Assembly (NCBI GenBank): GCA_001779925.1
Contig: MFEK01000010.1
Location: 19,377 to 83,376, forward strand
Direction of reading: 5' to 3'
Length of the DNA stretch: 64,000 nt
From: Candidatus Doudnabacteria bacterium RIFCSPHIGHO2_01_FULL_46_14
GTDB taxonomy: Bacteria; Patescibacteriota; Doudnabacteria; UBA920; 2-01-FULL-46-14
Both the position numbers and the translations under genes were made by a program. Position 1 is the stretch's first letter. Every line of letters begins with the position of its first letter. The notes under the pieces are model-generated. The model was not told the DNA's origin. It saw only the letters and a program-made list of their open reading frames with translations, and ran no database searches. Below, in pieces: positions 4,281 to 62,253 of this stretch.

Positions 4281-4372
4281 CCTCCCCCTTGAGGGGGGAG
4301 GTTAGGTGGGGGTGAAAAACAACTCTTTATTACCACCCCTCCCTCAATCCCTCCCCCTCAAGGGGAGGGAAA
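4281..4372. repeat. repeat family A, locus R2 (inverted pair, tails inward)
   Basis: cctcccccttgaggggggagg-ttaggtgggggtgaaaaa ... ccacccctccctcaat-ccctccccctcaaggggaggg. Confidence 0.85.
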
Positions 4373-10255: not shown

Positions 10256-10270
10256 ACTGTTTGTATTATA

Positions 10271-10633
10271 TCAGACATCAACCATGACCTTAAATCCACC
10301 GTAGGCAAAACGCTTCATATCAAACGGCATATCTTTCATTGCATCCTTACCGTACTTTTTTTCATAATACGCCATGACTTTTTTGTTTACCGTGTCGCGG
10401 TGTGCCCGAGATTTATAAACTATAAACGAAAACCATACTGTCTCGTCCGGCTTGGTTTTCGCCATTTTTGGAAATGTGTTGATGACCCATTTGGGTTTCG
10501 CGTCATCGAGAATACACTCTTTGTAATCGAGAGCGCCGAATCTTTTCCATACCTTGGATGCATCGCTTGCCATCTTTTTGTATTTACCAGTGTTCTTTTT
10601 TGGAACAGGAATCACAAAACCGTCTACATACAT
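10271..10633 (-). CDS. DUF1428 family protein
   Basis: MYVDGFVIPVPKKNTGKYKKMA...ECILDD signature. Confidence 0.55.
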   Translation of the reverse strand: MYVDGFVIPVPKKNTGKYKKMASDASKVWKRFGALDYKECILDDAKPKWVINTFPKMAKTKPDETVWFSFIVYKSRAHRDTVNKKVMAYYEKKYGKDAMKDMPFDMKRFAYGGFKVMVDV

Positions 10634-16992: not shown

Positions 16993-17943
16993 TTATTGTT
17001 TGGTCAAAGCCTCCCTGTATGCAACTAGAACTTTCTGTCCGTGGGAGCCCGGATGGAATGACAGCTCATTGTCAGAAACAAGAATGTTCTCCTGCCTGCG
17101 GATGCGGTGCTTTTGATAGATTCCGAGCAGGTAATTCAAAACCGGAGCGATCGTATAGTCCAGGATCAACTCTAAAATCTTACCCGCGACGCTGAATCGA
17201 AAATCGAAAAATGGCACTGCCCTCTCGTACCGAACATTCGGCAGATAGCCTTTTATCCATTGGTTTTTTTGCCAAAATCTCTTGAGTGTATCGCCGCCGA
17301 TCACCGGCAGGAGACTGGCGTATTCGACCGCGGTATAAAGATTGCGATCATCGGTAATCTCGGTATCGTCCGCCAAATAATGGTTGAGGCAAAATCGGCC
17401 AGCAATTCTTTCCGCATACCTCCGCTGTCCCACCAGCTGAAAATATGCCGAAACCAGCGCGCGGGTCAGCCAAATGCGATTTTTTTTTGTGATGATAAAA
17501 AGATCAATGTCTGATCCGGACTCAGAGTTGAGTAGCGCCTGGGAGCCGGACAGGGCCACGGCCCGCACATATGGCAGGTGCCGCAAAAAACGCAAATATT
17601 TTTTGGTTTTGGCAAATCGCAGCAGCGAGATCTGGTAGCGGTGCTTTCTCTCGGCGATCAATTCTGCGCGACCGCGCAAAAAATACAGGCCTTCGCGATG
17701 CTCGACTTTGCCGGATAATTCTACGGTAATCGTGCTTTCGATTTCAGACAGGATTTCACCCCCACCTTTATCCTCCCCCCTCAAGGGGGAGGAATGGGAA
17801 CCGGTCCCCGCTTTTCCCTCCCCTTGAGGGGGAGGGACCGAGGGAGGGGTGTGAATTAGATAATTTTTCAGTTCCAGGCCCGTCAGCGCCATATCCTGCG
17901 TGTCAAAAAAAACCAGAGTGCTATAGGCTGAATTTTTCTGCAT
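16993..17943 (-). CDS. nucleotidyltransferase (Pol-beta superfamily, MNT-type GS...SDIDL) domain protein
   Basis: LSGSQALLNSESGSDIDLFIIT motif; start chosen at MQKNSAY (17943); repeat locus R3 translated in-frame near the N-terminus. Confidence 0.5.
   Translation of the reverse strand: MQKNSAYSTLVFFDTQDMALTGLELKNYLIHTPPSVPPPQGEGKAGTGSHSSPLRGEDKGGGEILSEIESTITVELSGKVEHREGLYFLRGRAELIAERKHRYQISLLRFAKTKKYLRFLRHLPYVRAVALSGSQALLNSESGSDIDLFIITKKNRIWLTRALVSAYFQLVGQRRYAERIAGRFCLNHYLADDTEITDDRNLYTAVEYASLLPVIGGDTLKRFWQKNQWIKGYLPNVRYERAVPFFDFRFSVAGKILELILDYTIAPVLNYLLGIYQKHRIRRQENILVSDNELSFHPGSHGQKVLVAYREALTKQ
17754..17855. repeat. repeat family A, locus R3 (inverted pair, tails outward) inside NTase CDS
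   Basis: tttcacccccacctttatcctcccccctcaagggggagg ... ttttccctccccttgagggggagggaccgagggaggggtgtgaa; encodes ...PPSVPPPQGEGKAGTGSHSSPLRGEDKGGGE... Confidence 0.85.
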
Positions 17944-35238: not shown

Positions 35239-38200
35239 GATTTATTATATTCCTGCCACGATTTAATTTTCAAGTCTTCCAATTTATAGGTCGTCAGAGC
35301 GCGGACAAAGGCGCGCGCGAGAAACAGATCCGTAAACAGTGGGGTGTTATTGTCCACGGTTGCCCGGCGAATGAGATGCCCGTCGGTAATGGTTGAGGCG
35401 ACATTACGCTGTTCATCAGGACTGCGCTCCGTCAGGTTAATCACAAACGCGACCTTTTTTTGGTTGATAAATTCCAGGACATTCAGCTTTCGCGATTCGT
35501 GGACTTTGTAGACTTTGGAGCATTTTACCCCGGATTTATTGAAAAAGTCGCACGTAGTATCAGTCGCGTAAATTTTAAATCCAGCTCTGAGAAGCGCTTT
35601 CGCGCTTTCCAAAAACCGTTTTTTGTTCATGATGCCGCCGAGGGACAAGAGCACGGCTTTTTTGTTGATAAACGGCACGGTAGCATAAACAGATTTGAGA
35701 AGGGCTTCGTCCGCATCATCACCAAAACACGCGACCTCGCCGGTGGAAGCCATTTCCACATGCAGGAGCGGATCCGCGCCTGCAAGCCTGGCAAAAGAAA
35801 ACTGCGGCGATTTTACTACAACGCTACTAGGATAAGGGATTTCAATCCTACGACTTTTACCATAGAACGAGGCCACGATCATTTCCGCAAAATTAACACC
35901 GGTGGCCTTGGAAAGAAGCGGAAAGGTTCGGGACGCGCGGAGGTTTGCTTCAATCACGTAAACCCGGTTGTCTTTGACCAAAAACTGCACGTTTAATGGC
36001 CCGGTGATGGTGAGGGCGCGAGCCAGGGCGGCCCCGACCTTCATGATCTTCTGTTCCGTGGAAGCAAAAACCCGCTGGGTCGGATAAACAATCGTCGCAT
36101 CTCCGGAATGCACGCCCGCATTTTCAATGTGTTCGGAGATAGCTTGCACCTGAATGCGGCCATTTTGCGCGACCGCGTCAAGCTCGATCTCCCGCGCGCT
36201 CGTGAAAAATTTGGAAATAGTCACAGGATGGGTCTTGTTAAGAGTCGTTGCTTTATTTACAAACCATTCCAGCTCGTGCTCATTGTAACAAACTGACATT
36301 GCCGACCCGGAGAGCACGTATGAGGGACGCACCAAAACCGGATAGCCCACCTCGCTTGCAAACTTTTGCGCCTCGGCCATATCCGTAAAACTGTTCCAGC
36401 GCGGCTGGGGGATGGCAAGCCTGTCTAGCAGCGCGGAAAATTTATTACGGTCTTCCGCCCGATCAATATTTTCGGCCGCGGTGCCGAGAAGTTTCGCCCC
36501 ATATTCAGAAAGAGCGTTGGCCAGGTTGTTCGGCGCCTGGCCGCCGACCGACACAACCACGCCTTCGGGTTTTTCAAAATCGAGAATCTCGGTCACTGTT
36601 TCAAATGACAGCTCCTCGAAATAGAGCCTTGCCGACATGTCGTAGTCCGTAGAAACTGTTTCCGGATTGCAATTAATAATGATCGACTGCCTGCCGTATT
36701 TCGGAAGCGCAAGCGCGGTATGGACGCACGACCAGTCAAACTCTACGGACGAACCAATATGATATGGGCCGGAACCCAAAACCACCACGCTTTTTTTACC
36801 AAGGGCCCTCACATCATGGTGCGAACCATTATAGGTCAAGTAAAGATAATTGGTTTTCGCCGGTACCTCGCCTGCCAGCGTGTCGATCTGAAATACCGAG
36901 GGCGTAACACGCAGTTTTTTGCGAAGCTTGCGGATCTCTGTTTCCGGCACATTCCTGATATGCGCTATGCGACGATCAGAAAACCCGAGTTGTTTGAGGT
37001 GCCAAAGCTCGTCTGTTTCCAGTTTCTTATTTCTGGCAAGTCCGAGCTCGGCCTCGACAATATTTTTAACGCGATAAAGAAACCATGGATCAATCCCAGT
37101 CAGAGCTTTGATTTTCCTGATCGGCACATTGCGTTTTATGGCTGAAGCCAGGGCAAATAGACGCTTTGGCGTGGGCACGCGCAAATAGCGCTCAAGCTCT
37201 TCCGGAGAAAAATTATTATCCGTTACGCCTTCCACACGGCCATGGAGCATGCGCACGGCTTTCTGCAGAGCCTCCTCAAACGTGCGGCCAACGGCCATAA
37301 CCTCGCCCACGCTCTTCATGGCACTGCCGATTTTTTCCTCGGCCCCGCGGAATTTTTCCAAATCCCAGCGCGGGATTTTCACTACTACGTAATCAAGCGC
37401 TGGTTCAAAAAAAGACTGGGTAACCTTTGTAACTTGATTCTGTACATCAAGAAGAGATTTTCCAAGGGCAAGTTTCGCGGCTACGTATGCGAGCGGATAA
37501 CCCGTGGCTTTCGAAGCCAAAGCCGAAGATCGGGAGAGGCGGGCGTTGACCTCTATAACTTCAAAATCAAATCCACCCCCACCCCGCCTCCCCCCTCGAG
37601 GGGGAGGAATCCTTCTGTACTTCCCTCCCCTTGAGGGGGAGGGACTAAGGGAGGGGTGAGGGTTTACCGCATATTGAACGTTGCACTCGCCGACTATTCC
37701 CAAAGAACGCACGATTTTTATGGAAGCCTCGCGCAACAAATGATATTCGTCATTGGTCAGGGTCTGGCTCGGCGCCACCACAATCGAATCACCGGTATGG
37801 ATGCCGAGGGGATCGAGGTTTTCCATGTTGCAGACAGTAACGCAATTGTCATAGGCATCCCGAACCACTTCGTATTCAAGCTCTTTGTAGTGATGTAGAT
37901 ATTTTTCTACGAGAATTTGCGAGGAGATAGCGAGCGCGTCTCTTGCAATCTTTTCTAATTCCTCCCTACTCCGCGCCATCCCAGATTTTTGTCCACCGAG
38001 CGCATAAGCCGCTCTGACCATGACCGGGTAGCCAATATTTTTGGCAATCTTTAACGCCTGCGGTAAATTTGTAGCCGCCTTGCTTTTCGGCACGGAAATA
38101 TTTATTTTTTTCAAATGATCAGCAAATTTCTGACGATCTTCAGTAAGAACAATGGCCTCAATAGGGGTTCCGAGCACTGCTACGCCATATTTTTTCAGAA

Positions 38201-41016: not shown

Positions 41017-42186
41017 CTATTGATTATCATGTATTTCTAACGGGGCGAGTCTATGATTTGCTCCAACAACTTCTTTAACTGACCGAAATCCATCAGCTTC
41101 CAATAATTTTACCAAACCCCGTTTAATTTTTTTCGGCAACGAAGGACCTTCATAAATCATACCCGTATAAATTTCCACGAGGCTTGCGCCAGCGCGGATC
41201 TTTTCGTACGCATCCTCAGCGGAAAAAATCCCCCCTGCTCCGATTATCGGTACTCGGCCTTCAAGCTTTTTGTAAAGATAACCGATCACTTCAGTAACTC
41301 TCTTGGCAATCGGGCGGCCAGACAAACCGCCCCCGCCCATGCCCTCAGTGGCAGCGGTATTAGTCGCAATAACCCCGTCAATCTTTGTTTCCAAAACAAT
41401 CTCTGCAATATCATCAAGCTCACCGTCAGTCAGATCAGGTGAGATTTTGAGAAGCAAAGGCCGCCACCCCCACCTAACCTCCTCGCCTCGCCTTCGCTCG
41501 GACGAAGCGGGCCCCCTCAAAGGGGAGGAATTCGTTTGTATTTCCCTCCCCTCGAGGGGGAGGGCTGGGGAGGGGTGATTCAATTTCTGTAATTCCATAA
41601 GCAAATTCCTCAGCTCCTCTTTCCCCTGTAATTCCCGCAGTCCCGGTGTATTTGGAGAACTAACATTGACCACCACATAGTCGGCCAAGGGCGCTAATTC
41701 TGTAAATCCCGTGGCATAATCGCGCAGAGCCTCCTCGTTCGGCGTAATTTTATTTTTTCCTAGATTGACCCCGATCACAAAATCGCGCTTCTCAAGTCTT
41801 TTCAAATTTTTCGCCACTGCCATTGCGCCCATGCTGTTAAATCCCATCCGGTTGATGATCGCCTTATCCGCATCCAGACGAAATAGTCGTGGTTTGGGAT
41901 TGCCCGGCTGCGGCTCAGGGGTCACAGTCCCCACTTCAATAAACCCAAACCCGAGCGCGGCCATGAACCGCGCAAAGCCGCCGGATTTATCATAGCCAGG
42001 TGCAAGGCCGATCGGATTTTTGAATCTGACTCCAAAGACTTCAGTCTCAAGCGATGGATGTTCGTACCGAAACAACGGCGAAAACACTTCGGAAAGTCCC
42101 GAAAAATTCCTGCCCAAAGCCGCCACAGCATTGTGCATGGTTTCTGGCTGGATAGTAAATAAAATCGGCCGCAAAAGTTTATACAT
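41017..42186 (-). CDS. pyrD: dihydroorotate dehydrogenase (class 2-like, with N-terminal extension)
   Basis: FKNPIGLAPGYDKSG..., FIEVGTVTPEPQPGNPKPRLFRL; R13 in-frame. Confidence 0.85.
   Translation of the reverse strand: MYKLLRPILFTIQPETMHNAVAALGRNFSGLSEVFSPLFRYEHPSLETEVFGVRFKNPIGLAPGYDKSGGFARFMAALGFGFIEVGTVTPEPQPGNPKPRLFRLDADKAIINRMGFNSMGAMAVAKNLKRLEKRDFVIGVNLGKNKITPNEEALRDYATGFTELAPLADYVVVNVSSPNTPGLRELQGKEELRNLLMELQKLNHPSPALPLEGREIQTNSSPLRGPASSERRRGEEVRWGWRPLLLKISPDLTDGELDDIAEIVLETKIDGVIATNTAATEGMGGGGLSGRPIAKRVTEVIGYLYKKLEGRVPIIGAGGIFSAEDAYEKIRAGASLVEIYTGMIYEGPSLPKKIKRGLVKLLEADGFRSVKEVVGANHRLAPLEIHDNQ
41464..41578. repeat. repeat family A, locus R13 (inverted pair; first unit with nested hairpin insertion) in-frame within pyrD
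   Basis: cacccccacctaacctcctcgcc[tcgccttcgctcggacgaagcgg]gccccctcaaaggggagg...tttccctcccctcgagggggagggctggggaggggtga. Confidence 0.85.
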
Positions 42187-42982
42187 TGCGGTACTGGTTT
42201 ATCTCATCTCGCAATTTCTTAGCCTCTTTCCCCGGGTCTTTAGCGAAAATTATCGAGCGAGCGGCATTAATTATCATGCCTTTTTTCTCGCTGTTCAGGC
42301 CCGCTTCTACCGCAGCTTTCACATCGCCGCCTTGCGCCCCGATACCGGGCACAAGCAAGGTCATATCGCCCGTGATCTCCCTCACCTTTTTTAACTCTGC
42401 TGGATAGGTCGCACCCACAACTAGCATGCAGTTCTGGTTTTCATTCCATTCGCTCGAGACCTTTTCGGCAACAATCTGCCACAGTGGTTTTTCGTTCGAA
42501 ATCAGATCCTGAAACTCGCCTGCGCCCGTGTTAGAGGTCCGGCACAAAATGATCGAGACCTTATCATAACGAACCAGAAACGGCTGGAGCGCTTCCCGGC
42601 CAAGATAAGGGTGCAGAGTGATCGCGTCAAAACCGAAATAGTCGAAAAATGCAGTCACATAACCCGCATTGGTGTTGCCAATGTCTGCGCGCTTGGCGTC
42701 GCAGATCGTAAAAATCTCCGGGTGCTTCTTATGCAGATAATCCATGGTGAGTTTCAACTCAGTTATTCCGGACTCGCCGCGCGATTCATAAAAAGCCAGG
42801 TTCAGCTTGTAAGCTGCCGCATATTTGTGTGTTTCATTGATAATGTATCTATTGAACGCTAACTGCGGCTGGGACATAGTTTGAAATTCCTGCGGCAATT
42901 TCGTCAGGTCTGAATCAAGTCCTACGCATAACAGAGAATTTATTTCGTCGACACAGGAATTGTATCTATCAATTGGATTCAT
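42179..42982 (-). CDS. pyrF: orotidine-5-prime-phosphate decarboxylase (type 2, long form)
   Basis: 267 aa; ...LLCVGLDSD...; ...ICDAKRADIGNT... motifs. Confidence 0.8.
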   Translation of the reverse strand: MNPIDRYNSCVDEINSLLCVGLDSDLTKLPQEFQTMSQPQLAFNRYIINETHKYAAAYKLNLAFYESRGESGITELKLTMDYLHKKHPEIFTICDAKRADIGNTNAGYVTAFFDYFGFDAITLHPYLGREALQPFLVRYDKVSIILCRTSNTGAGEFQDLISNEKPLWQIVAEKVSSEWNENQNCMLVVGATYPAELKKVREITGDMTLLVPGIGAQGGDVKAAVEAGLNSEKKGMIINAARSIIFAKDPGKEAKKLRDEINQYRNV

Positions 42983-43557
42983 GATTTCCTCCGTTTTAAT
43001 TCTCCTATCACCAAATTTACCAATTTCACAGGATTGCTTTCAAAAATTATTTTCGCCTTACGTTTTTTGGAGGTCTCTTTTAAAAGTCTGGGCAATTCAT
43101 CGGCAAATCCGCCGCTTTTGACGAGCACGCCGATGACCCGGCCGTAATCATGCAAACTGCAAAATTCGTGCATAGTGCCCCAGCGCCCGGCAATGATTAC
43201 GCCCGCATCACACGTAGCAGTAGACATTACGTTCCGGTATTTTCTGGTCACCTCAAGGTCGCGGGCGAAAGGAAAATTTTTCGGCACAAACACTATTTTA
43301 CTGTATACCCGGGGATCATCATCAGGAAAAAATTTACTGTGGTCTTTTTGATTTCTGAGAGGCGAAAAACCCCACACCTCGCCGCCGGATTCATGCGCAC
43401 CGACAGCGGCTGCATAAGGCAGTCCCGGGCAAGCGCCAGTGACGACGATATTTCCAGCTGTGGCAATCGCGCGGCCGATTTTTTCGGACTTCATTGTGGC
43501 TTTGACGATTTCTGCCTCGCCCCCAGCTGAGCCAAAAACTCCGATTTTATATTTCAT
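42979..43557 (-). CDS. LOG/TIGR00725-family Rossmann-fold protein embedded in the pyr operon
   Basis: IGVFGSAGG...; GRWGTMHEF (GGxGTxxE-like). Confidence 0.5.
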   Translation of the reverse strand: MKYKIGVFGSAGGEAEIVKATMKSEKIGRAIATAGNIVVTGACPGLPYAAAVGAHESGGEVWGFSPLRNQKDHSKFFPDDDPRVYSKIVFVPKNFPFARDLEVTRKYRNVMSTATCDAGVIIAGRWGTMHEFCSLHDYGRVIGVLVKSGGFADELPRLLKETSKKRKAKIIFESNPVKLVNLVIGELKRRKS

Positions 43558-44204
43558 ACTTTTTCTTTATTAGCTTCGTGCCAAGCATCAGGGTCTTTAC
43601 TCCAGCTTAGAGCGTTATCCTTTTCCTCATCATTCAAATATTTCTCTTGAGAAGCTAGCTTGATTAAGGTAGAAAGATTGCTGAGTGCAAAAAAATTCAC
43701 GTTGGCATCAGCAAAAGCTTTCTTGGCTTTCTCCATTTCGTAATTAAAAATCGCCAAAACCGCAACAATATTCGCGTCATACTCCCGCTTACAAGCATTC
43801 ACAGAAGAGAGCGAACTCCGGCCTGTTGAAATTAAATCCTCTACAACCAAAACTCTAGCGCCTTTTGCCATTACCCCTTCCACCTGTTTTGCAGCACCGT
43901 AATCCTTTGGTTGGGCCCTGACATATACCAATGATTTTTCTAACTCTGCTGCCAGGAAAGATGCCCAAGGAATGCCAGCTGTTGCAGTGCCTGCTATTAC
44001 ATCGAATTCCAGATTATTTTCTTTGATCAAATCCTTAAATCCTTCCAAAACAACACTTCGCTCTTTTGGATAAGAGATTAAAAGACGATTATCGCAATAA
44101 ATCGGGGCAAGCAATCCCGTATTCCATTCAAACGGTGGATTAACGCTTACTTTCACAGCTTTTATACCCAGTAACAATTTGGCGATAGCTTCTTCTCTGT
44201 TCAT
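43554..44204 (-). CDS. pyrE: orotate phosphoribosyltransferase
   Basis: PRPP-binding motif VLVVEDLISTGRS. Confidence 0.85.
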   Translation of the reverse strand: MNREEAIAKLLLGIKAVKVSVNPPFEWNTGLLAPIYCDNRLLISYPKERSVVLEGFKDLIKENNLEFDVIAGTATAGIPWASFLAAELEKSLVYVRAQPKDYGAAKQVEGVMAKGARVLVVEDLISTGRSSLSSVNACKREYDANIVAVLAIFNYEMEKAKKAFADANVNFFALSNLSTLIKLASQEKYLNDEEKDNALSWSKDPDAWHEANKEKV

Positions 44205-45043
44205 AAACTTTGGACTTTATCTTTAATCGAAACTTTGGCCTGCGGCGAAACAATCGAGTCAGTCGAGAACACGCATTCAGCGAGCTTGCCGATCTGCGCG
44301 GGCGAATCAAACAAAAACAGTCCGTGAACCGCGGCCACGCATATGCGCTTGGCGCCGCAGGCTTTTATTTTCTCAATGCCAGTAATCATCGTGGAACCAG
44401 TACTTATCATATCATCGATTAAAAGCACGTTTTTGTCCTGCACATCAAACTCGCAAACCATTCCTTCGATCGGCCGGTAATCTACCTTACCTTCATACTG
44501 CTTGCGATTCTTTTTCATAAATTTCCCGCCGTGGTTTTTCACGAGGTAGGATGCGCCCTCATCCAAACCAATGATCTCAAAATCCTCGCCGCCGAAAAAA
44601 TCTTTTGCCTGCATGATCAACTCATCTCCCATGGACAGATTTTGAATTTTCAAATTCCCATATTTTTTTTCGCCTTCCTCATTGAGAAAATGACAATCAA
44701 ACGTGATGAGTTTTTCACAGCCCGCGGCCGCTATCAGATTGCACGTTATCGGCGCGCTGGCAATCTCGCCATCAAGGATCTGTTTTTCATGGCGCGCATA
44801 CGGCAGATACGGCGACACCACAGTCACGCGCGCCTTGTGCTCTTTGAGCGCCTCGAGAATGAGGAGGAGTTCTACAAACATGCTGTTTTGTTTGGGATAA
44901 AGGCGATGAAATAGCATGACCTCTTTCCCGGCATACTCCTGGAGATTCGGGATGCGCACATGCGTGTTGCCATCAGGAAATTTGCCGATTTCGACGTTCG
45001 GCTCAAAAAGGTCTGAAAAGTTTGGGGAAACGAGTTTTATCAT
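44201..45043 (-). CDS. prs: ribose-phosphate pyrophosphokinase (PRPP synthase)
   Basis: ...LLIDDMISTGSTM... PRPP motif, N-terminal PRTase-type domain. Confidence 0.9.
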   Translation of the reverse strand: MIKLVSPNFSDLFEPNVEIGKFPDGNTHVRIPNLQEYAGKEVMLFHRLYPKQNSMFVELLLILEALKEHKARVTVVSPYLPYARHEKQILDGEIASAPITCNLIAAAGCEKLITFDCHFLNEEGEKKYGNLKIQNLSMGDELIMQAKDFFGGEDFEIIGLDEGASYLVKNHGGKFMKKNRKQYEGKVDYRPIEGMVCEFDVQDKNVLLIDDMISTGSTMITGIEKIKACGAKRICVAAVHGLFLFDSPAQIGKLAECVFSTDSIVSPQAKVSIKDKVQSL

Positions 45044-45093
45044 ATTTTTGTGCGACCCGTCCCTGCGGCGTCCGCCCTAGGCGGACTGCTGGG

Positions 45094-45118
45094 CAAAAAA
45101 ATAGACCCCATTGGGGTC
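45094..45118 (-). terminator. rho-independent terminator between a short leader transcript and prs
   Basis: gacccc-att-ggggtc hairpin followed on minus strand by T7. Confidence 0.6.
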
Positions 45119-45179
45119 TTATTACACCTTAAGAAAGTTTACGCGGATTGGGCAGTTGAGCTTAGTCATTTCTTCTGGG

Positions 45180-45208
45180 ATCTTACACGAAAAACAGGGG
45201 TTTGTCAA
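45180..45208 (-). promoter_or_regulatory. sigma70-like promoter TTGACA-17-TAAGAT on minus strand
   Basis: Reverse complement of 45203-45208 = TTGACA; of 45180-45185 = TAAGAT; same hexamers as the promoter at 5307. Confidence 0.6.
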
Positions 45209-45224
45209 ACACCCACAAGTTGAA

Positions 45225-45266
45225 TAAAAAAATACAAAAGGGCTGGGAAAACAGGTCCCAGCCCTT
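45225..45266 (-). terminator. rho-independent terminator (gggctggga / tcccagccc stem + T7)
   Basis: Direct reading, minus strand. Confidence 0.65.
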
Positions 45267-45352
45267 TGGGGTGAGTCAAAAAGGTAGCGGAGTTTAGTCT
45301 GAGGCGCGCCAGCTTGGTAAACAGTCTGACGCAGATTGAGGATCCCCTCCTT

Positions 45353-45439
45353 TCATGCCTGCAAAATTTCGGTCTGGCTACCCACGCTCACTCCTTTCAG
45401 GTATGAAATTGGGAATTTCCTGTTGGTCGCGATCTTCAT
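45353..45439 (-). CDS. candidate micro-ORF B (MKIATNRKFPISYLKGVSVGSQTEILQA) with perfect SD AAGGAGG
   Basis: AAGGAGG 6 nt upstream of ATG; lies between ORF A and terminator 45225-45266. Confidence 0.2.
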   Translation of the reverse strand: MKIATNRKFPISYLKGVSVGSQTEILQA

Positions 45440-45442
45440 GGC

Positions 45443-45544
45443 CTACCTCCTTATTCGAAAGAAAAATCCAGAAAGGCTAACTGCTGCGAGCAACTGACGC
45501 CTTTGGTACCATCTGCGGCGAGAGCCGAAATGGCTATTTCCCAT
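45443..45544 (-). CDS. candidate micro-ORF A (MGNSHFGSRRRWYQRRQLLAAVSLSGFFFRIRR; track ORF 45443..45634 extends it upstream) with perfect SD AAGGAGG
   Basis: AAGGAGG 6 nt upstream of internal ATG; its stop overlaps ORF B SD. Confidence 0.2.
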   Translation of the reverse strand: MGNSHFGSRRRWYQRRQLLAAVSLSGFFFRIRR

Positions 45545-45665
45545 CAAGTGCCTCCTTGGAGCTTGGATGATTTTATAATACCGAACTAACCCATAGGAGC
45601 AAAACAAGATACCCACATAAAACAGGTGGCTCATCTAATTTTCAATCAGATGGTAGCAAAACAAT

Positions 45666-45705
45666 GAAAAAGACGGCGACTGCCAGGCAGTGCACCGTCT
45701 TTTTG
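45666..45705. terminator. bidirectional intrinsic terminator (A5-hairpin-T5) after gene 45722..46150
   Basis: aaaaagacggcgactgccaggcagtgcaccgtcttttt. Confidence 0.55.
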
Positions 45706-45721
45706 GATTGGGTTTTAGAGC

Positions 45722-46150
45722 TTAACTAGCTTGTGGCTGATTGCATATCCACGACCTGATAGTCGCTTTCCCAAATATGGGAATTGCCAGCAGGTTGACA
45801 CCGCAGTTTTCCAATCGTATCAACCCGTCGTTATCAATTCTTCCTGCAGTACAAAATCCCGTAAGCACCTTTGATATCTCATTGAGATTCTCAGCCGTGA
45901 TGAATATGCAGTCGGGAATTGTGACAATCGACGTCTCCGGCTGATAAACCGCCACGTACATGAAATCATTGACATCATTGCCCAACCGCGTGTATATCTC
46001 AAACAATGTCACCAAACCCGGACCGTCAGCGAGCACAGTGCCAGAAGGCGGCGGGAACACCTTGGCCTTTGACAGATCAATACCCAGCCAGCGCTTGATA
46101 AAACTTCTAAGCTCAGCCATGTTCATTTCTCCTCTTTGAAATTTGTTCAA
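45722..46150 (-). CDS. hypothetical protein (142 aa; TTG start in track)
   Basis: No family recognised. Confidence 0.4.
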   Translation of the reverse strand: MNKFQRGEMNMAELRSFIKRWLGIDLSKAKVFPPPSGTVLADGPGLVTLFEIYTRLGNDVNDFMYVAVYQPETSIVTIPDCIFITAENLNEISKVLTGFCTAGRIDNDGLIRLENCGVNLLAIPIFGKATIRSWICNQPQAS

Positions 46151-46328
46151 ACGAAAAACGGCCTCTGTTTGAGGCCGCCTGACAAAGTTCGTAAAAACTT
46201 TTACAATTTACAAGCGCTAGCAAATAACCTCAAACAGGGAACCGTTTGAGTGACGCAACATTTGATGCTGTGGAATATTTGCTTCATATTTTGATTATAT
46301 TCCTCTATTATAGACCCGTCAAAGTTAA

Positions 46329-46369
46329 TTCACCCCTCCCTCAATCCCTCCCCCTCAAGGGGAGGGAAG
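46329..46369. repeat. repeat family A, locus R14; supplies the last codons and stop of gene 46355..46852
   Basis: ttcacccctccctcaatccctccccctcaaggggaggg; minus-strand reading gives ...RFLPSP-stop. Confidence 0.85.
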
Positions 46370-62076: not shown

Positions 62077-62253
62077 ATTCAAAGTCGGGCAGGTGTGAAC
62101 GGCGCGCTCTACCACTGTCCGACCATAGTCGTCCGATCTCACATCGGACTCCGAAATCGGTCGGGAGGACTCCGACACGGGTCGGAGAGCTATGCGCCCT
62201 TTGGAGTATTTAAATAATACCAAAAAGCGTGCTATTTTGCTATAATTGAATCC

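Follow-up and report, generated by a model that had tools for sequence, protein, structure and literature searches.

The DNA analysed here is a stretch of 64,000 nucleotides (the window) of contig MFEK01000010.1 from Candidatus Doudnabacteria bacterium RIFCSPHIGHO2_01_FULL_46_14, and our subject is the long gap that precedes its pyrimidine operon. On the minus strand, from 45043 down to 34330, nine genes lie in the order prs-pyrE-SLOG-pyrF-pyrD-pyrC-carA-carB-pyrB (Pfam assignments), with gene-to-gene gaps of -8 to 93 nt, and together encode the complete pathway to uridine monophosphate. The gap upstream of prs, at 45044-45721, measures 678 bp and is the largest in a crude open reading frame (ORF) map of the window, the runners-up being 438 and 347 bp long; a first-pass annotation of the sequence had rightly called a gap of 680 bp exceptional. 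Upstream of it lie btuR/cobO, DUF4430 and DUF6580 genes, a putative operon for corrinoid/B12 uptake and salvage. The homologues of Prs, the phosphoribosyl pyrophosphate (PRPP) synthase, are labelled Candidatus Doudnabacteria or Patescibacteria. Three metagenome contigs encode a Prs identical to that of the window; in these the whole DUF6580-prs interval is identical in DNA, and none of the three (0/3) has a gene call inside the 678-bp gap.

We propose that the gap is mosaic, with four pieces that are unrelated to one another, namely a proximal leader (45095-45208), a distal element (45227-45557), a DUF6580 relic (45563-45634) and an orphan ORF with its terminators, and that the proximal piece is a transcription attenuator of the prs-pyr operon; we give this reading a probability of roughly 0.55. 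The first-pass annotation had regarded the interval as one candidate attenuator or small RNA (sRNA) locus. The parts it listed, comprising tandem AAGGAGG-N6-ATG micro-ORFs of 33 and 28 codons, two terminators, a promoter and a 15-codon ORF, were all recovered where it had placed them, and the idea of an attenuator in front of prs holds for the proximal promoter-leader-terminator, which is conserved in 10 versions, but not for the whole 680 bp as a single locus. A Shine-Dalgarno (SD) sequence without an ORF, a hairpin at 45667-45704 and the DUF6580 relic had escaped it. To our knowledge, most members of the Candidate Phyla Radiation (CPR)/Patescibacteria lack de novo nucleotide synthesis. In the clade studied here, the nine-gene prs-pyr operon is complete and has a compact conserved leader at its head; at 115 bp, this module is small enough for heterologous or cell-free work, which would give rare experimental access to regulation in an uncultivated phylum. 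No publication on such leaders in Patescibacteria or Doudnabacteria, or on gene regulation in CPR/Patescibacteria, came up in our literature search.

A conserved leader in front of prs

The proximal leader of the window and the gene that follows it comprise these features:

45203-45208 (-35 box) and 45180-45185 (-10 box), minus strand: predicted sigma-70-type promoter TTGACA-17-TAAGAT, from a consensus scan
45122-45169, minus strand: leader micro-ORF of 15 codons, MTKLNCPIRVNFLKV, without an SD sequence, its ATG 10 nt after the -10 box and predicted to be near-leaderless
45126-45130, minus strand: invariant AAGGT motif within the leader micro-ORF
45103-45119 (stem; U-run to 45095), minus strand: predicted attenuator terminator with a 7-bp stem AGACCCC/GGGGUCU, an AAU loop and a AUUUUUUU tail
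45070-45086, minus strand: GC-rich hairpin GTCCGCC-TAG-GGCGGAC between attenuator and prs
44201-45043, minus strand: prs (PRPP synthase, Pfam), first gene of the operon, with its ATG at 45043

The stem begins 2 nt after the leader stop codon, and 51 nt separate the end of the U-run from the prs ATG. By themselves, the consensus scans are insignificant: where 2.4 sites of each kind would be expected, 3 promoter-like and 5 terminator-like ones occur. We compared 10 versions of the leader (window, L004, L176, L008, L006, L095/L172, L175, L010, L177 and L114/L115, the numbers denoting related loci), with Prs identities across the leader-bearing relatives of 54-89%. TTGACA with a -10-like box 15-17 nt away is present in 10/10, as is the ATG, which in 9/10 directly follows the promoter at 7-13 nt from the -10 box; this spacing predicts a 5' untranslated region (UTR) of only 0-6 nt. 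The ORFs that start at this ATG are 10-15 codons long (MTKLNCPIRVNFLKV, MRQFCPIRNDSLKVK, MRLFNAPIRPQIT, MRQINAPIRDRYLKG, MRQFNRAINAFVTKG, MTQFNCPIRDRRRTG, MREFDCQIDSLDLKG, MKRSGHTIHLSEH, MNNRRKINFSYF and MKNRGKIHRL). All leaders have an A/C-AGGT motif 36-40 nt past the ATG, followed after 3-6 nt by a GC-rich hairpin of 6-8 bp and then by 7-8 U. The 5' block ATGA..CAAT[CT] is 46-79% identical across leaders, and the spacer between it and AAGGT has a fixed length of 12-13 nt and an essentially random sequence (17-50% identity). Between the leader stop codon and the stem are 0-2 nt in six of the ten versions and 6-7 nt in another three, and L114 has 12 nt; at 1842-1850 of L114, the leader ORF ends in UGA-AUG-UAA, where the UAA is the TAA of a TAAGGT motif and puts a stop 6 nt from the stem.

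The terminator stem covaries across the 10 leaders: one pair is G-C in five and C-G in five, another is A-U in six and G-U in four. A covariation analysis against relatives had been suggested in the first-pass annotation; it yielded this stem but no other conserved helix and no riboswitch-like structure. A covariance model built from nine leaders picks up the tenth, L176, which had been held out, with 45 bits (E = 8e-6). The U-run and the start of prs are 0, 6 and 8 nt apart in L008, L006 and L177, respectively, which leaves no room for another promoter, so that transcription through the terminator is required. Related CCGCC...GGCGG hairpins stand between the leader terminator and prs in some relatives and are missing from others.

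Neither the covariance model, applied to the window and the other related loci, nor a regex scan found leader copies before other genes. Inspection showed that the module is missing from the five closest CPR genome loci (L012-L016) and from the Doudnabacteria metagenome-assembled genomes L173 and L174, at 69% identity; among Prs loci below 70% identity, the covariance model found it only in L114/L115. A scan of the genome collection with the single Prs found no relatives, the same scan with a Prs alignment returned mostly Micrarchaeota and distant taxa, and a metagenome scan added only L092, L093, L095 and L114/L115.

Several observations are consistent with translation of the leader ORF. The ATG frame is open for its 10-15 codons in 10/10 leaders, the +1 frame stops at nt 1 in all and the +2 frame stops before nt 27 in 7/10; the product probability from shuffling is about 0.003, with the sequences treated as independent. 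Indels in the N-terminal part are multiples of 3 nt, and synonymous variation is seen at Ile (ATC/ATT) and Arg (CGC/AGA) codons. A strong SD sequence precedes only 15 of the 74 ORFs of the window (about 20%), and 16/74 have a -10-like hexamer 4-10 nt ahead of the start (about 22%, versus 6.4% of all ATGs; for example at 35239-35275, 62230-62253 and 10256-10275), from which leaderless or short-leader mRNAs appear to be common in this genome. Since strong SDs are rare and -10-like boxes near starts frequent, the near-leaderless micro-ORF is plausibly translated. The frame of the upstream ORF B is open past its UGA into the leader ORF (45122-45439, 90 codons); it is not conserved in L175, would matter only with UGA readthrough and is probably a coincidence.

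It is quite probable, as judged from these comparisons, that the proximal 115 bp form a conditional terminator, i.e. an attenuator, of the prs-pyr operon. This view is based on the conservation in 10 versions, the covarying hairpin, the start of prs 0-8 nt after the U-run and the separate terminator that already exists upstream. The last point concerns the window and L175, where another strong terminator lies about 20 nt upstream of the -35 box, so that the leader hairpin is not needed to end upstream transcription.

The distal element and the origin of the gap

The remaining features of the gap are:

45667-45704, minus strand: A/U-flanked hairpin AAAAAGACGG...CCGUCUUUUU, fold -24.3 kcal/mol, z = -4.4
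45563-45634, minus strand: DUF6580 3'-end relic, HLFYVGILFCSYGLVRYYKIIQ, from blastn and tblastn, its frame continuing into ORF A
45551-45557, minus strand: SD1, AAGGAGG, followed by N6 and the ORF A ATG
45443-45544, minus strand: ORF A, 33 amino acids (aa), MGNSHFGSRRRWYQRRQ..., its TAG stop immediately 3' of SD2 and abutting the ORF B start
within 45443-45557, minus strand: 11-bp hairpin in the ORF A segment, GCCAUUUCGGCUCUCGCCGCAGAUGGU, identical in the window and L175
45446-45452, minus strand: SD2, AAGGAGG, followed by N6 and the ORF B ATG
45353-45439, minus strand: ORF B, 28 aa
45340-45353, minus strand: SD3, an extended SD sequence without a conserved ORF, AAAGGAGGGGATCC
45268-45339, minus strand: conserved tail after SD3
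45237-45267 (U-run to 45227), minus strand: distal terminator with a 12-bp stem

The first-pass annotation had the stop of ORF A overlapping SD2; the TAG in fact lies immediately 3' of it. AAGGAGG occurs at eight sites on both strands of the 64-kb window (128 kb), three of them within about 210 nt in the gap. The distal element recurs only in L175 (Prs 78% identical), where it starts at the DUF6580 stop codon; because this copy directly follows DUF6580, the element is the tail of the upstream operon and not part of that of prs. In our reading, it is older than and separate from the proximal leader and constitutes the 3' end of the btuR-DUF4430-DUF6580 operon. Over 338 nt, the two copies share 72% identity, and in two blocks 47/50 and 30/33 positions agree, whereas fourfold sites in the flanking prs genes of the same two genomes are 44% identical. 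Both copies keep the three perfect SDs, both ATGs, the abutting or overlapping stop and start, the terminator and five AGGA motifs at conserved positions. In ORF A, all nine fourfold-degenerate sites are identical to L175 and a 2-nt indel shifts the C-terminal frame; the 5' half of ORF A is, on this comparison, constrained at the nucleotide level. The L175 homologue of ORF B has 25 aa, differs by an in-frame 9-nt indel and shows an ATGA stop/start overlap; on inspection, it also has an AGC-to-TCT serine change, but the codon-position identities are.81/.62/.58. SD3 of L175 reads AAAGGAGGTGATCC, which we take to be exactly complementary to the canonical 16S 3' end, and no conserved ORF follows it.

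Our best guess, from these patterns, is that the distal element is a small-peptide mRNA (a bicistron) with an embedded conserved, possibly regulatory RNA hairpin. It might also act as a ribosome-binding RNA, since three SDs are present of which one is a 14-nt complement of 16S without an ORF, and serve as a 30S decoy or a stabiliser of a 3'-derived sRNA. Orphan SD elements of the STAB-SD type and multi-GGA decoy RNAs (CsrB/RsmZ) may provide a lead here. The distal element resembles them in its perfect, extended, ORF-less SD3 and in the five AGGA motifs of both copies; unlike them, it does not occupy a 5' UTR but the 3' end of two micro-ORFs, and no gene for CsrA was seen. Single-sequence folds of the element (z-scores of about -1.8) are not decisive, a two-sequence RNAalifold was discarded as overfitted because it broke the terminator, and a scan of viral contigs for the conserved ORF A hairpin found nothing. 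ORF A and ORF B had no candidate among 5.8e9 proteins, the 63-aa frame of relic plus ORF A had no match among 1.84e9 representatives and Pfam gave nothing for the small ORFs of the gap.

The comparison with relatives also explains why the gap is so large. In L004, L008, L010, L177 and the P0009 contig, prs comes straight after DUF6580, at a distance of 90-346 bp and with no called gene in between; identities to the window Prs are 89% for L004/5, 80% for L008/92 and L010/11, 79% for P0009 and 74% for L177. An opposite-strand ORF occupies the DUF6580-prs position in L176, and one lies immediately upstream of prs in L006/7 and L172. By blastn, the segment at 45563-45634 aligns within the DUF6580 genes of L010/L011/L094 (79% over 67 nt) and of L175 (24/24 nt), and by tblastn with residues 141-170 of the L010 DUF6580 (E = 5e-7). 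Its translation, HLFYVGILFCSYGLVRYYKIIQ, is a DUF6580 C-terminus of the L175/L010 type, and its frame runs on into ORF A, which creates a spurious 63-aa ORF. The intact DUF6580 of the window, by comparison, has a C-terminus of the L004 type and ends in a GC-rich palindromic repeat (CCCTCCCC-TTGA-GGGGGAGGG), which supplies its last codons and TGA stop. The rest of the inserted region showed no similarity to a known gene in tblastn, protein and phage/plasmid searches. A degraded gene remnant, against which the first-pass annotation had itself warned, is thus present only at 45563-45634 and nowhere else in the gap, and its other caveat, that the region might not be conserved in relatives, proved true of the distal two thirds and false of the proximal third.

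The orphan ORF (45722-46150, minus strand, 132-142 aa) found only itself among 5.8e9 proteins, has no Pfam match and is missing from every related locus. Terminators at 46157-46179 and 45667-45704 flank it and no promoter is evident, so that it is perhaps not a real gene. The hairpin at 45667-45704 is the terminator after this ORF and lies outside the prs leader. That the ORF is a frameshifted DUF6580 pseudogene was ruled out, only the last 26-30 codons matching. The ORF and its terminators are lineage-specific inserted DNA; blastn of 45044-46354 against phages and plasmids gave no match and thus no evidence for a known mobile element as the insertion. The gap is large because an insertion or recombination left the DUF6580 3' relic and the orphan ORF behind, and its unusual length is an artefact of this insertion, not the sign of a large regulatory RNA. 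In general, the DUF6580-prs junction seems to gather diverse small cargo: at 2730-2800 of L008 (identical to L092), an SD-led hydrophobic micro-ORF of 16 codons, MKIVRWTLFFAIFFAA, sits after DUF6580 and before the prs promoter, and its stop overlaps the -35 TTGACA.

Candidate mechanism and competing explanations

Based on the arrangement of promoter, micro-ORF and hairpin, and considering known attenuators, we think that ribosome-coupled attenuation has close to an even chance of being the way in which the proximal leader works. The hypothetical sequence of events would be as follows: (i) the strong promoter would give a transcript starting 0-5 nt before the AUG, in which the micro-ORF of 10-15 codons is followed by the terminator, with prs beyond; (ii) a ribosome would load at the near-leaderless AUG and arrive at the stop codon before RNA polymerase has finished the hairpin and the U-run; (iii) at the leader stop codon, the ribosome would cover the 5' arm of the stem, so preventing termination and allowing transcription of prs-pyr; (iv) when RNA polymerase outruns the ribosome, the hairpin would form and transcription would stop with a transcript of about 75 nt. 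The signal sensed is perhaps the supply of nucleoside triphosphates or of uridine triphosphate (UTP), or translational capacity, but this is a guess.

The pyrE and pyrBI attenuators, according to Turnbough and Switzer, are said to be UTP-sensitive and translation-coupled, with a race between RNA polymerase and ribosome set by the UTP-dependent speed of the polymerase. Like these leaders of Escherichia coli and Salmonella, the one described here places a pyrimidine operon behind an intrinsic terminator, with the stop of an upstream ORF next to the hairpin and with the order promoter, leader, intrinsic terminator and structural genes uninterrupted by another promoter; and, if our proposal is correct, no antiterminator helix is needed, the ribosome itself blocking the hairpin. 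It differs in having no sequence similarity and no evident U-rich pause tract, in prs as first gene, in its CPR host and in a leader ORF that spans 10-15 codons, versus the 44-codon pyrL or the whole rph gene, lacks an SD and begins 0-5 nt from the predicted transcript start. In E. coli, it was proposed from earlier experiments that shifting the rph stop codon towards the attenuator loop restores proper pyrE regulation (PMC2784333). A possible leaderless counterpart is the mycobacterial Cys 'ribulon', in which an unannotated leaderless short ORF (sORF) is the first cistron and the position of the ribosome controls the downstream genes (Canestrari et al., bioRxiv 10.1101/834739); those sORFs contain poly-Cys runs and unmask the next gene's ribosome-binding site, a translational effect, whereas the leaders here have no run of regulatory codons and their output would be the terminator. 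With the trp, his and leu leader-peptide attenuators the prs leader shares the order promoter, leader peptide, terminator and biosynthetic operon, but neither their tandem regulatory codons nor conserved 1:2 or 2:3 alternative hairpins. Bacillus PyrR attenuators (RF00515) and nucleotide or PRPP riboswitches likewise put a terminator-based leader before pyrimidine genes; in contrast to them, the leader has no Rfam match at E <= 10, no binding-loop motif, no anti-antiterminator and no pyrR in the operon.

Structure searches point the same way. At the gathering threshold, Rfam 15 finds only two tRNAs in the whole window, both outside the gap, and ARAGORN finds no transfer-messenger RNA (tmRNA), in agreement with the first-pass annotation, which had seen no hallmarks of tmRNA, RNase P, SRP or 6S RNA. 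With E <= 10, the best-scoring Rfam match in 44900-45900 owed its 21 bits to the terminator, the gathering score being 50, and the L175 homologue matched no family. RNAalifold, run on MAFFT and manual alignments with and without the terminator, detects no conserved helix besides the terminator, and hence no conserved structured aptamer with covariation upstream of it, as a riboswitch would have. Single-sequence folds differ from leader to leader; AAGGU-pyrimidine hairpins in some of them occupy non-homologous positions and were treated as chance. Because only the terminator helix is conserved and no Rfam match was obtained, a riboswitch, a PyrR-type and a trp-type leader are all disfavoured. 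In our assessment, the proximal leader would represent a new attenuator family whose logic is known from pyrE/pyrBI and the mycobacterial sORFs and whose sequence is not shared with them. If the ribosome-coupled model is true, a very distant lineage with minimal genomes independently evolved a control of pyrimidine synthesis that needs no repressor, and attenuation works with a near-leaderless micro-ORF of 10-15 codons.

A number of observations weigh against this interpretation. The 10 leaders are few, related and not independent. In L008/L092, promoter and ATG are separated by a GC-rich hairpin element about 100 nt long, so that the AUG is not 5'-terminal. AAGGT is kept in differing frames, as K-V or K-G codons or with TAA as a stop, and the codon-position identities of the leader are not coding-like, both of which point to an additional constraint at the RNA or DNA level. 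A U-rich pause tract is not a consistent feature, the 13-nt stretch in front of AAGGT being U-rich in L177, L008 and the window and not in L095 or L006, and where the stop lies 6-12 nt before the stem (L010, L177 and L114) occlusion would be only partial. Terminators 19-47 nt before gene starts are frequent in this genome, with at least four other places in the window before same-strand genes, and for this reason constitutive partial termination is possible. The distal element is known from two lineages only; the relic next to it shares a 24-nt identical block with L175, which hints at recent recombination, and this would inflate the apparent conservation and weaken the argument for purifying selection.

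The differing frames of AAGGT are what one would expect if the attenuator were sensed at the RNA level, with a protein or ligand recognising the 5' block (AUGAGACAAUUYAAC.GCCCAAUC) and AAGGU and with an open frame that is incidental. The two conserved blocks split by a spacer of fixed length and random sequence, the near-constant 36-40 nt from ATG to AAGGT and, on inspection, codon positions 1, 2 and 3 without a clean coding pattern all fit such a reader; yet the terminator is the only conserved helix in both RNAalifold alignments, Rfam at E <= 10 matched neither the PyrR site nor any riboswitch, an aptamer made of about 45 nt of unstructured RNA would be a small one, the operon has no candidate regulator gene, and the retention of ATG and open frame in all ten leaders, with N-terminal indels in multiples of 3 nt, would be left without a reason. 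We regard this explanation as rather unlikely. Still less probable, in our view, is a constitutive leaky terminator that ends the DUF6580 operon and fixes prs-pyr at a low level, possibly releasing a stand-alone sRNA of about 75 nt as well. The prs promoter does follow a same-strand DUF6580 in L004, L010, L177, L008 and L175, and in the first three of these it overlaps the DUF6580 stop, making the leader hairpin the first terminator after that gene, besides which the window has the comparable terminators just mentioned. Against this stand the retention of the leader terminator in the window and L175 despite the strong terminator about 20 nt before the -35 box, and the conservation of TTGACA, a leader of fixed length, the 5' block and the ORF, which a simple terminator would not need.

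Different alternatives concern the distal element. It is unlikely, on balance, that it is non-functional here, i.e. a decaying remnant with silent ORFs that was brought in by recombination together with the DUF6580 relic. Such a remnant would account for its position downstream of the orphan ORF terminator with no promoter found in a scan of 45560-45665, its absence from most relatives, the lack of protein homologues of ORF A and ORF B, the differing C-terminal frame of ORF A and the 24-nt identity of the adjacent relic to L175, a sign more of a shared recent origin than of selection. It is harder to reconcile with 72% identity over 338 nt and the 47/50 and 30/33 blocks where prs fourfold sites reach 44%, with SDs, ATGs, stop/start coupling, an in-frame ORF B indel and a terminator retained in both copies, and with three of the eight AAGGAGG sites of the window lying in this element. 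The model of the first-pass annotation, a unified two-stage attenuator or riboregulator of prs over the whole 680 bp, we consider very improbable: the two modules are indeed adjacent on the prs strand in the window and in L175, but the proximal leader occurs in five relative lineages that lack the distal element, the distal element of L175 begins at the DUF6580 stop codon, and a 12-bp terminator and a new promoter separate the modules. Finally, only a slight chance is left, taken jointly, for two further readings, in which the conserved leader peptide M-R/T-Q-F-N-x-P-I-R is a metabolite-sensing arrest peptide and the distal element is a ribosome-binding RNA. In the former, stalling or release of the ribosome next to the hairpin would make termination responsive to a pyrimidine or PRPP-related ligand, and this would be the first regulatory arrest peptide in CPR bacteria.

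Other features of the operon and window

Outside its own CPR clade, the window Prs is archaeal-like, with its best genome matches in Micrarchaeota (DPANN) at about 49% identity and other bacteria at about 30% (L017-L030), which suggests gene exchange between CPR and DPANN lineages. The SLOG/LDcluster4-family gene between pyrE and pyrF (42979-43557, minus strand) is present in this lineage only, pyrE being followed directly by pyrF in the relatives. PyrD has 389 aa in the window versus 329-377 aa in relatives. Within the end of carB, pyrB is preceded by TTGAAA-17-TATAAT-5-ATG, which has the appearance of an internal promoter. The GC-rich palindromic repeat in which the intact DUF6580 ends belongs to a family, CCCTCCCC-N4/5-GGGGAGGG. 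Similar hairpins separate the leader terminator from prs in L176, L175 and L095, and the promoter from the leader ATG in L008/L092. The family is found at six or more sites of the window:

2524-2544: GC-rich palindromic repeat
4349-4369: GC-rich palindromic repeat
17816-17836: GC-rich palindromic repeat
37623-37643: GC-rich palindromic repeat, in the carB span
41544-41574: GC-rich palindromic repeat, in the pyrD span
46346-46366: GC-rich palindromic repeat

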